From the sequence record OQ708376.1: a DNA stretch of 64,000 nt; one strand, given 5' to 3'. Shown piece by piece: positions 26,308 through 62,554 of this stretch (positions are counted from its first letter, which is position 1; each line of letters begins with the position of its first letter). This DNA is from Escherichia phage vB_EcoM_CRJP21. A model generated the notes under the pieces. It had not been told where the DNA came from, made no database searches, and worked only from the letters and a program-made list of their open reading frames with translations. The translations under genes and the position numbers were made by a program.

Positions 26308-26621
26308 TGGATATAGTAACATTGATTTACACGTTGTATTCATTCTATTTCATTATGTGTTGGGTTGGATTTTTATTTGTACTCAAGATGTTTGATTATG
26401 TTGAAAAACAGATAAAAGAATTTTGTATTCCTTTTATCGGTTCAACCATTATTAGTGTTTCTTGTGTGTATTTTTTGGTTTTTGATCCACCAGATAACAC
26501 TGCAATGATTGACTTGATGTTACTACCAACAACTGTTACTTTTTTATGTAGTCTGATGCCGCCGATTAGCCGTGGACTAACAGAATTTAGACGCAATCAA
26601 AAGCGTAAACGAGGGATGTAA
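26307..26621 (+). CDS. small membrane protein, paralog family (array B, 5 of 8)
   Basis: overlapping start; basic C-terminal tail. Confidence 0.5.
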   Translation: MDIVTLIYTLYSFYFIMCWVGFLFVLKMFDYVEKQIKEFCIPFIGSTIISVSCVYFLVFDPPDNTAMIDLMLLPTTVTFLCSLMPPISRGLTEFRRNQKRKRGM

Positions 26622-46952: not shown

Positions 46953-47202
46953 GCAGTTTACAAATCTTTACAATTGCCGGTATTGACTTATTTTGTCAGT
47001 ACTGGCATAATGTATTCATTGGCAGATAAGCCGTAGCCCATAGGGTGCGGGAGTGTATCTATAGAAAAATTAGTTTAGTATAGTTACAATTGTGCACCCG
47101 GTGGGTTAGCTGTTGTCATGGGGTATATTATACCAGTACTTGATAATGCTGTCAATACTTTTTTTTTACTATTCAGTACTGAAAACTATTTTTAAAAAGT
47201 AC

Positions 47203-52963: not shown

Positions 52964-52996
52964 GTGGTTGACTTCGGTCAGCCATTTTGTTATTAT
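52964..52996 (+). terminator. bifunctional terminator/promoter element (variant)
   Basis: GGTTGAC-TTCG-GTCAGCC; TATTAT downstream. Confidence 0.55.
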
Positions 52997-53089
52997 ATAT
53001 TCATTGAGAGATAGCTCACTAGCCCACAGGGTGCAGGAGTGTATCTATTGTATGAGTATTGAGTACTGAAAACTATTTTTAAAAAGTAC

Positions 53090-53901: not shown

Positions 53902-54081
53902 ATGGCTATCATCGCAAAAACTGAAATCGTTGGTCTGGATTCTATCATCATGACGTTTGAAGATCAAAAAGGTATGTATGTAGTTTCATATGGTGATTAT
54001 GTTCGGGAGTATGAAACGGTAGACGAAGCCTTTGAAAGTTACATTCGCCAGGTGAATAAAGCATACGACGATTACCGCTAA
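53902..54081 (+). CDS. hypothetical protein (59 aa)
   Basis: AAGGAAT RBS; below track cutoff. Confidence 0.45.
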   Translation: MAIIAKTEIVGLDSIIMTFEDQKGMYVVSYGDYVREYETVDEAFESYIRQVNKAYDDYR

Positions 54082-54429: not shown

Positions 54430-54627
54430 ATGATTAGCATGAAATCAGTACAAAAACAAATAGAAACATTATCAAAAATTAAACGTAAACAGTACTCCTT
54501 AGAATATACAATCAATGGTAACTATCATCTAATGAAAGAGAATAATTTTATAGTCATTGATGAATCATTGCAAATCATTAGTATAGTACTGAAAGCATTA
54601 ATCAATGACAGAAAAAAATTAAAATAA
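54430..54627 (+). CDS. hypothetical protein (65 aa)
   Basis: ORF in track; AT-rich. Confidence 0.4.
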   Translation: MISMKSVQKQIETLSKIKRKQYSLEYTINGNYHLMKENNFIVIDESLQIISIVLKALINDRKKLK

Positions 54628-54631
54628 ACTA

Positions 54632-54660
54632 TTGACAATATCATCAAGTACTGGCATAAT
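54632..54660 (+). promoter_or_regulatory. promoter TTGACA-N17-CATAAT
   Basis: hexamers read; followed by about 300 nt without a + strand ORF. Confidence 0.5.
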
Positions 54661-54958
54661 ACTTACATCAAGACGAGAACGTCACTAACCCATAGGGTGC
54701 ACAAATGTAACTGTATAATATTGATCAAAAAATGATCTGATCAATACTTGATCAATTTGCGTAAAGTAGTATAATTCTATGCAGTTGGTTAGACGAAAGG
54801 TTATGATTAGTAGTGCAAGTGTATAAAAATTTTCATGGTGTATCGTTTCGCACATATGGGGATGAATATGTGGTATCATGTGGATTGGAAAAAGTAAGAA
54901 CAAGTAATATTATTGTCGCATTACAGTACTATAGTATTTTTATAATGAGGTTAAAATA

Positions 54959-55216
54959 ATGGCTGTAGGATTCGCGAAAGATGGGGCCGAACAAGACGAG
55001 ATTAACGCAGTGATTCAGGCCGCCGTTAACCACGCTAGAAAGCAAATTAACGCACAAATAGAATCACTGATACATTGCCTCGACTGCGGCGATATAATCC
55101 CTGAGAATCGACGCCAGGCCGTTAAGGGATGTAAGTACTGCATAACTTGCCAGGAGGATCATGATAGTACTTTTAAACGTCCCCCGCGTAATTGTTGGCA
55201 TAGATCTATGAGATAA
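54959..55216 (+). CDS. DksA/TraR family C4-type zinc-finger protein
   Basis: CLDCGDIIPENRRQAVKGCKYCITCQ matches TraR-type C-x2-C-x17-C-x2-C pattern with conserved IP..RR. Confidence 0.6.
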   Translation: MAVGFAKDGAEQDEINAVIQAAVNHARKQINAQIESLIHCLDCGDIIPENRRQAVKGCKYCITCQEDHDSTFKRPPRNCWHRSMR

Positions 55217-56990: not shown

Positions 56991-57026
56991 GGGATTGACT
57001 CCGGTCAGTCCCTTTGCTATTATATA
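56991..57026 (+). terminator. bifunctional terminator/promoter element (GGGATTGAC-TCCG-GTCAGTCCC)
   Basis: hairpin; TTGACT-N17-TATTAT; identical copies at 60261 and 62519. Confidence 0.6.
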
Positions 57027-60260: not shown

Positions 60261-60296
60261 GGGATTGACTCCGGTCAGTCCCTTTGCTATTATATA
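60261..60296 (+). terminator. bifunctional terminator/promoter element
   Basis: GGGATTGAC-TCCG-GTCAGTCCC; TATTAT downstream. Confidence 0.6.
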
Positions 60297-60387
60297 TTCA
60301 TTGAGAGATAACTCACTGACCCATAGGGTGCGGAAGTGTATCTATTATATAAGTATTCAGTACTGAAAACTATTTTTAAAAAAGTAC

Positions 60388-62518: not shown

Positions 62519-62554
62519 GGGATTGACTCCGGTCAGTCCCTTTGCTATTATATA
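62519..62554 (+). terminator. bifunctional terminator/promoter element
   Basis: GGGATTGAC-TCCG-GTCAGTCCC; TATTAT downstream. Confidence 0.6.

Follow-up and report, generated by a model that had tools for sequence, protein, structure and literature searches.

Genomic setting and features of the locus

The window analysed here, meaning the whole 64-kb stretch of DNA, belongs to an Asteriusvirus jumbo coliphage (PBECO4/121Q group, ~350 kb). The 1-kb stretch around the locus of interest matches 36 Asteriusvirus records, which include jumbo coliphages and Salmonella phages, and shows 99.7% identity with Escherichia phage SHEFM2K. In the records with determined ends, the locus is located within the long direct terminal repeat, ~11-12 kb in and amid early genes; for example in vB_Ec-M-J, it lies ~12 kb into a terminal repeat annotated as 1-21525 (21.5 kb). 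Its surroundings consist of numerous short early genes, each standing behind a sigma-70-type promoter. For the related phage CBB, RpoD-like promoters with UP-like elements have been predicted, concentrated in the presumed early-gene region and with three further ones on the terminal repeat, while past promoter prediction the early regulation of Rak2-like phages has hardly been studied (PMC5259590). The features that we identify at the locus are listed below.

54619..54627, + strand: left copy of the 9-bp direct repeat TTAAAATAA, made up of the final codons and the stop codon of the 65-aa gene at 54430-54627; left indel edge
54628..54959, + strand: accessory 332-bp cassette, containing P1, the leader box, the GATC/Fis-like array with P2, and the 48-aa gene
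54632..54660, + strand: predicted promoter P1 (TTGACA, 17-nt spacer, CATAAT; TG before the -10; 11/12)
54689..54712, + strand: conserved leader box CCCATAGGGTGC-N5-TGTAACT (TGTATCT in other copies), ~30 nt downstream of P1
54714..54719, + strand: TATAAT-like hexamer just 3' of the leader box, with no usable -35; no promoter found
54723..54737, no strand assigned: distal Fis-like site GATCAAAAAATGATC, with two GATC; exact match to the Fis consensus; centre at ~-52 of the predicted P2 start
54739..54753, no strand assigned: proximal Fis-like site GATCAATACTTGATC; 1 mismatch to the Fis consensus; centre at ~-36, overlapping the P2 -35
54748..54775, + strand: predicted internal promoter P2 (TTGATC, 16-nt spacer, TATAAT; 10/12; predicted start near 54782)
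54813..54959, + strand: 48-aa gene (GTG start; AAAGG Shine-Dalgarno at 54796-54800; phrog_38664 = 121Q gp293)
54959..55216, + strand: DksA/TraR-family C4 zinc-finger gene, 85 aa (PF01258, 5.4e-11, 42.7 bits against a cut-off of 24.9)

The protein-coding genes

The initial annotation regarded 54661-54958 as a 300-nt non-coding stretch, with no plus-strand open reading frame until 54959. Our analysis shows otherwise: a GTG-initiated frame of 48 aa is present at 54813-54959, the truly non-coding part is restricted to 54661-54812, and about half of what had been taken for non-coding DNA is a real protein gene. This frame is annotated as gp293 in 121Q and also appears in several other records, and its product matches the phrog_38664 profile over the full length (residues 1-48, E 7.4e-36). 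The 121Q allele has 63% DNA identity over the first 31 codons, with both frame and length kept and with differences by codon position of 10/7/19. Homologues occur in three phage clades; Erwinia phage Hallingskeid, Pectobacterium phage CBB and nine metagenomic clusters have versions of 47-62 aa. In CBB (NC_041878, 16896-17045; L014 692-841) the homologue is an unannotated 49-aa frame between gp042 and gp043, whose stop overlaps the gp043 ATG. AlphaFold models the 48-aa protein as four strands and a C-terminal helix (pLDDT 91.5); a search with this fold gives no significant PDB match, DNA-binding folds included (best E 0.47), and the protein has no Pfam match.

Two competing gene models exist for the same DNA. 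A 29-aa version of the small gene (54870-54959, +), given in two records annotated with PHANOTATE (SHEFM2K and BAU.Micro_ELP-22), would leave out N-terminal strands that are conserved in other clades, and 48 aa is therefore preferred. A minus-strand frame of 72 aa at 54685-54903, given in the same two records, is open neither in 121Q nor in Hallingskeid. The annotation is thus corrected on two counts, with a real 48-aa gene at this place and the minus-strand frame of some records spurious. Among the neighbours, no paralogy is detected between the 48-aa protein and the 65-aa gene next to it. A weak match to the 48-aa protein is given by the product of a 59-aa gene (phrog_9374, 53902-54081; hhalign E 0.001, probability 21%), and a G-x-Y-V-V-S-x-G hairpin with the following helix is common to both; the Hallingskeid homologue of the small protein weakly matches both phrogs (phrog_38664 and phrog_9374). 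The 59-aa gene may be a distant tandem paralogue of the 48-aa gene.

The TAA stop of the 48-aa gene overlaps the ATG of the 85-aa gene (TAATG). The latter has been correctly called DksA/TraR-like, with a C4 zinc finger and a PF01258 domain, and its closest solved structures are E. coli YbiI (2KGO, 2.9e-12) and TraR (5W1S, 1.6e-5). It resembles these short DksA-type proteins in the C4 zinc finger and, with YbiI, in an alignment over the whole length; on the other hand the 85-aa gene is not itself part of the GATC feature, and the binding of its product to RNA polymerase is putative. The gene is without a promoter of its own and is translationally coupled to the 48-aa gene.

An accessory cassette at a stop/start junction

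The block containing the promoters, the array and the small gene is flanked by two copies of TTAAAATAA, at 54619-54627 and 54951-54959, and is present in the PBECO4- and 121Q-type phages while absent from the phAPEC6 type. In ph0011, which is of phAPEC6 type, one junction copy (AGGTTAAAATAATG) is left, 54628-54958 are absent, and the stop of the upstream 65-aa gene (gene 292) directly overlaps the ATG of the dksA-like gene. BLAST alignments of phAPEC6 and UE-S1 likewise have a gap of ~330 bp here, and the three cassette-minus phages (ph0011, phAPEC6 and UE-S1) have no detectable small gene at any other place. Since the block is absent in the phAPEC6 type with no small gene copy elsewhere, the cassette is accessory. 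Where present, which is in only some Asteriusviruses, it gives the DksA-like gene two extra predicted promoters. The PBECO4- and 121Q-type alleles of the cassette are ~79% identical overall, with near-identical ends and a strongly diverged middle (~54720-54905). In Hallingskeid, the homologous cassette is directly preceded by an HNH endonuclease gene (L012 114-542), which may be relevant to the mobility of such cassettes.

This arrangement invites comparison with the promoter-early stem-loop (PeSL) cassettes of T4-type phages, which mediate the gain and loss of small early genes (PMC2839356, PMC4122927). Common to both are an optional small early gene with its own sigma-70 promoter in the hyperplastic early region of a T4-related myovirus, and an inverted repeat across the -35 in the sister P1 promoters of the window. 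They differ in that the focal indel ends in the 9-bp repeat TTAAAATAA at a stop/start junction and not in repeated promoter modules, and in that the focal P1 has no stem-loop; in fact no composite terminator/promoter stem-loop of the PeSL kind is found at the cassette border, nor a terminator-like hairpin at the focal P1. The P1-type promoters with an inverted repeat across the -35 are located at ~52985-53010, 56998-57025, 60270-60297 and 62527-62552. An example of the repeat is GGGATTGACTCCGGTCAGTCCC followed by TTTGCTATTAT, which resembles the PeSL-type composite terminator/promoter of T4-like phages (PMC4122927).

Promoters and the leader box

The promoter proposed earlier at 54632-54660 (P1) is borne out with a score of 11/12, and five other cassettes in the window have P1 promoters that align with it. 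As for the "second TATAAT-like box" of the initial annotation, there are two TATAAT hexamers, at 54714-54719 and 54770-54775. The latter is the -10 of the predicted promoter P2, and is invariant in both Asteriusvirus alleles; the Hallingskeid clade has a homologous promoter, TTGAC(T/A)-17-AATAAT. At the former no promoter is predicted. Sister cassettes read TGTATCTAT/TGTATCTAA through the leader box and its 3' edge, so that the TATAAT at 54714 is not conserved, and this hexamer is probably not a promoter.

A repeated motif had also been reported in the stretch, and it is indeed found as CCCATAGGGTGC at 54689-54700, with 6 plus-strand copies or near-copies in the window against 1.4 expected by chance on both strands. 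It forms the first part of the leader box, whose consensus is CCCAyAGGGTGC-N5-TGTAwCT with copies at 47037, 53023, 54689, 57045, 60320 and 62573, all on the plus strand. The same box is present in Erwinia phage Hallingskeid (L012 596-628) and in metagenomic relatives; it hardly varies between the jumbo phages of E. coli and those of Erwinia, with variable flanks. The box thus belongs to a repeated early module, in which a sigma-70 promoter is followed ~30 nt on by the box. In at least 3 copies (53023, 57045 and 60320), an UP-like tract rich in A/T and a second promoter come next. The focal copy has the GATC array where the UP-like tract and the -35 of the second promoter would otherwise stand. 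Candidate roles of the box are a DNA site, an RNA hairpin CCC-N3-GGG, and a processing or antitermination signal; the positions of the CCC-N3-GGG stem never vary, so that covariation is uninformative.

The proposal of a long regulated leader or an sRNA finds no support in the stretch, about half of which is a protein gene. The leader folds no better than chance (z -1.77, with 11 of 200 shuffles folding as well; a second fold has a z-score of +1.06), Rfam gives no match, either at the gathering score or with E allowed up to 1, and the stretch has no predicted terminator.

A unique GATC cluster in a GATC-poor genome

The four-GATC cluster is confirmed, with sites at 54723, 54734, 54739 and 54750. 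Of the three motif copies described for it, TTGATCAA is exact at 54721 and 54748, and the third copy is only cTGATCAA. The array of the window is both a near-palindrome and a direct repeat. A check of the GATC frequency across the window, as had been suggested, shows that the cluster is locally unique in a stretch that is depleted overall. The 133 GATC observed compare with 167 in shuffles and with 211 expected under a Markov-2 model (ratio 0.63); the depletion is even stronger in the whole genome of the relative TH47, with 581 against 1243 expected under the same model (ratio 0.47). When 133 sites are placed uniformly, at least 4 GATC within 31 bp occur in 100 of 20,000 trials (p ~0.005), and the 54723-54753 cluster is the sole place in the 64-kb window with at least 3 GATC in 60 bp. 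In TH47, nowhere in the 352 kb except at the homologous locus do 4 or more GATC fall within 70 bp, and the only two TGATCAA-N4-TGATCAA pairs of this genome are both located there, at the homologous promoter. The idea that the cluster is a regulatory feature is supported by its unusual statistics, by the sigma-70-type promoter that it brackets, and by the conservation of its position across diverged alleles and in an Erwinia phage clade. On the whole, the GATC cluster is real, non-random and conserved.

Two 15-mers matching the Fis consensus

The four GATC are organized as two pairs, 11 bp apart within the pair, and each pair frames a 15-mer GATCAA-N4-TGATC. The consensus of E. coli Fis is GnTYAWWWWWTRAnC, in which positions 1, 4, 5, 11, 12 and 15 are the most important (PMC4278767); it is credited to Finkel & Johnson 1992 and Shao et al. 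2008 in two later papers (PMC4278767, PMC6907758), and a high-affinity form of the site is GNTYAAAWTTTRANC (PMC6907758). The distal 15-mer, 54723-54737, is the sole strict match to this consensus in the 64-kb window. Matches with at most 1 mismatch are not enriched over the whole window (14 observed against 13.6 expected), and the case for Fis therefore rests on local pairing and conservation. Strict matches elsewhere in TH47 have no obvious promoter context; among them, a second perfect GATC-framed 15-mer, GATCAATTTTTGATC, is found at 26415-26429 (MT446416) with no obvious promoter nearby. A scan of 54500-55000 gives no consensus match for DnaA, IHF, FNR or CRP.

We then consider ten lineages, which are related to each other, so that the site counts below are not independent events. 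G1 and C15 of the 15-bp core are present in both sites of the window and in all 20 sites of the ten lineages. Y4, A5, T11, R12 and the A/T-rich central pentamer are kept as well, with 0-1 mismatch to the consensus in 19 of the 20 sites and 2 in the proximal site of Turkey5. In ten of ten lineages, covering two phage genera, the centre of the distal site falls at -51 to -53 of P2; to our knowledge, -52 is not among the classical Fis activation positions. The second site moves, with its centre at -36 in the window, +5 in the 121Q type and -9 in the Hallingskeid clade, and always lies on core promoter DNA (the -35, the -10 or the +1). The resulting centre-to-centre distances of 16, 43 and 57 bp are not helically phased. 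Although Fis allows GNTY, GATC is kept in 38 of 40 half-sites. The two exceptions are TTAATC in L022, where the site is still an exact match, and TTGTTC in Turkey5, where the site has 2 mismatches.

Compared with the Fis-regulated sigma-70 promoters of E. coli, the phage promoter has the same 15-bp dyad (G1, Y4, A5, T11, R12 and C15 with an A/T-rich centre) and a placement that may likewise suit promoter control, with one site upstream of the -35 in the place of an UP element and one overlapping the core promoter. It differs in half-sites that are almost always exactly GATC, in the non-classical centre of the distal site, and in its setting, which is an early gene of a virulent jumbo phage with sites known from sequence.

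Conservation and turnover of the array

Despite the diverged middle of the cassette, three GATC stand at aligned positions in the PBECO4- and 121Q-type alleles, while others have been gained or lost. The window allele has one additional TGATCAA, arising from five substitutions in seven positions, and in the 121Q allele two further sites follow shortly after the -10. The same layout precedes the homologous small gene in Hallingskeid and six diverged metagenomic relatives, where the order is P1, box, TGATCAA-N4-TGATCAA, -35, and then GATCAATAATTGATC containing the -10. The within-pair spacing is 11 bp for every pair in every lineage, with a variable N4 spacer (taaa, gaaa, taag, ttat). The flanks of the GATC are kept too: T(-1) in 40 of 45 sites against 0.36 for background GATC, and AA(+1,+2) in 39 and 38 of 45 sites against 0.27 and 0.40, respectively. 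A scan of IMG/VR for further lineages returned only 121Q.

In other clades, the genes downstream of the small gene are not DksA-like, showing that the array goes with the small gene and its promoter. The link of the cluster to the DksA/TraR-like gene, as drawn in the initial annotation, is thus secondary. In the CBB-like clade, the small gene stands behind a single promoter with no array.

Interpretation: a candidate two-site operator on P2

Tentatively, we prefer to explain the array as a two-site operator on P2 that would be read by host Fis, with Dam methylation/SeqA as a second input. From upstream to downstream, the operon would comprise P1 as a consensus sigma-70 promoter, the leader box, P2, and the 48-aa gene overlapping the start of the DksA/TraR-like gene; because of this overlap, both proteins would be made from P1 and P2 transcripts. 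The GATC are the outer tetranucleotides of two 15-bp dyads, GATCAA-N4-TGATC, and the two sites would together be the operator of a DNA-bending protein that binds as a dimer, for which host Fis is the most probable candidate. We infer both this binding and the sign of the regulation: occupancy of the proximal site would set the output of P2 by host growth state, and P1 would supply unregulated read-through. The 11-bp spacing, A5, T11, the A/T-rich spacer and the TTAATC of L022 are all explained by the Fis consensus.

What the Fis consensus leaves aside is the choice of GATC. GATC stands in nearly every half-site of a genome that avoids it, where GNTY would suffice, and this points to Dam methylation/SeqA as an added reader. 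The methylation may come from host Dam or from a phage enzyme, with SeqA possibly acting on hemimethylated replicated DNA. Enterobacterial hosts have Dam. TH47 encodes a PF05869 Dam-family methyltransferase, which is a candidate GATC enzyme, and an N6-adenine methyltransferase has been reported for this phage group (PMC11895373, PMC7247149). No Dam of E. coli or T4 type is found in TH47; a weak tblastn match to Dam there falls in an unrelated frame that looks like a GIY-YIG homing endonuclease by sequence. SeqA requires close GATC pairs on one helical face and favours those ~10 or 20 bp apart (PMC2912659), and the 11-bp spacing gives such same-face pairs in all lineages.

A precedent is E. coli rsd, where tandem promoters P1/P2 with a Dam-dependent cluster of five GATC precede the gene of an RNA-polymerase modulator (PMC3089606). 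Likeness to rsd and SeqA-type promoters is seen in the tandem promoters, in the clustered GATC in and around core elements, and in the same-face spacing, and in both cases the regulated operon encodes a factor acting on RNA polymerase, as predicted for the phage protein. The phage GATC are however denser (4 in 31 bp, against 5 in 350 bp for rsd) and, unlike in Dam/SeqA promoters, are embedded in a larger conserved 15-mer, known here as a sequence pattern. In the rsd study, Fis binding was unchanged by methylation (PMC3089606).

Could methylation account for P2 without any sequence-specific protein? It would then alter the binding of RNA polymerase, or SeqA on hemimethylated pairs would shut P2 off after the first round of replication. 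The GATC at 54750-54753 lies inside the P2 -35 hexamer TTGATC, and the -10 of the Hallingskeid clade has a GATC on either side; the retention of GATC against genomic avoidance, the pair spacing suited to SeqA, the methyltransferases mentioned above and the rsd precedent all fit this explanation. It leaves unexplained, however, the conserved A5, T11 and A/T-rich spacer, as well as the two lost GATC that changed and yet stayed near the Fis consensus, and we regard it as rather unlikely. By the same evidence, the term "methylation-sensitive" used for the cluster in the initial annotation is not established: clustered GATC are there, but the conserved unit is a 15-mer matching the Fis consensus, larger than GATC, and L022 and Turkey5 lost a GATC while staying within two mismatches.

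We give a similarly low standing to an operator for a phage-encoded dimeric repressor, for example through autoregulation by the 48-aa protein, with two palindromic 15-17-bp sites TGATCAA-N3-TTGATCA. Such an operator fits every conserved position equally well, including those free in the Fis consensus (2, 14 and the outer T/A). The confinement of the TGATCAA-N4-TGATCAA pairs of TH47 to this promoter is in its favour, and so is the fact that the array travels with the small gene, the sole gene always downstream, and not with the DksA-like gene. Against it, no candidate repressor is identified: the 48-aa protein is a candidate by position, but its predicted fold, with no significant match to a solved structure and no Pfam match, gives no support, and the CBB-like clade keeps the protein without the array.

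An absence of any dedicated function is very unlikely. The array could then be an A/T-rich, UP-element-like region with short GATCAA duplications from slippage or recombination, and it does sit where sister cassettes have an A/T-rich UP-like element upstream of P2, in a near-palindromic and directly repeated form that could arise by duplication. However, two genera keep both its position and its sequence while the adjoining spacer DNA is scrambled, the sites turn over with their number maintained, and GATC is avoided genome-wide. Most improbable of all is a structured leader or sRNA from P1, or a GATC-marked replication origin or packaging site: P1 does lie ~150 nt upstream of the open reading frame with a conserved box between, and GATC repeats characterise oriC as well as the P1 ori and pac sites, but the leader fold is not significant, the locus is ~12 kb inside a 21.5-kb terminal repeat and not at its edge, and the block has no DnaA box and is dispensable in phAPEC6-type phages.

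Returning to the Fis operator, its most far-reaching form would be a dual-input switch, with both Fis and the Dam/SeqA system reading the same 15-mers; we hold this to be distinctly unlikely. If true, the phage would sense the host growth state (through the Fis level) and the replication status (through full versus hemimethylation) at one promoter, the switch would time when a TraR/DksA-like RNA-polymerase modulator and its 48-aa partner are made, and Fis sites framed by GATC would form a class of Fis operator of their own, gated by methylation. The paired GATC sites at this promoter have not been previously noticed in these phages, while the kind of control is ordinary. We have here a new example of familiar promoter control, in which only the possible link between a Fis-type site and GATC methylation could prove unusual, and the conceptual gain is modest unless the dual reading holds. 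What it offers is a concrete hypothesis, namely that a virulent jumbo phage ties one early operon to host physiology via Fis and Dam/SeqA.

Other short palindromes in the window

Besides GATC, two other 4-bp palindromes deviate in frequency. GCGC is completely absent both from the 64-kb window, where 56 are expected, and from the 352,450 bp of TH47 (MT446416; L026-L033), where 172 are expected, an avoidance far stronger than for any other 4-bp palindrome, which suggests selection by a GCGC-specific nuclease of host or phage. GTAC is over-represented, by 1.53x in the window and 1.37x in TH47, and the palindrome AGTACT recurs in or beside early-promoter spacers, for example at 54647-54652 in P1.
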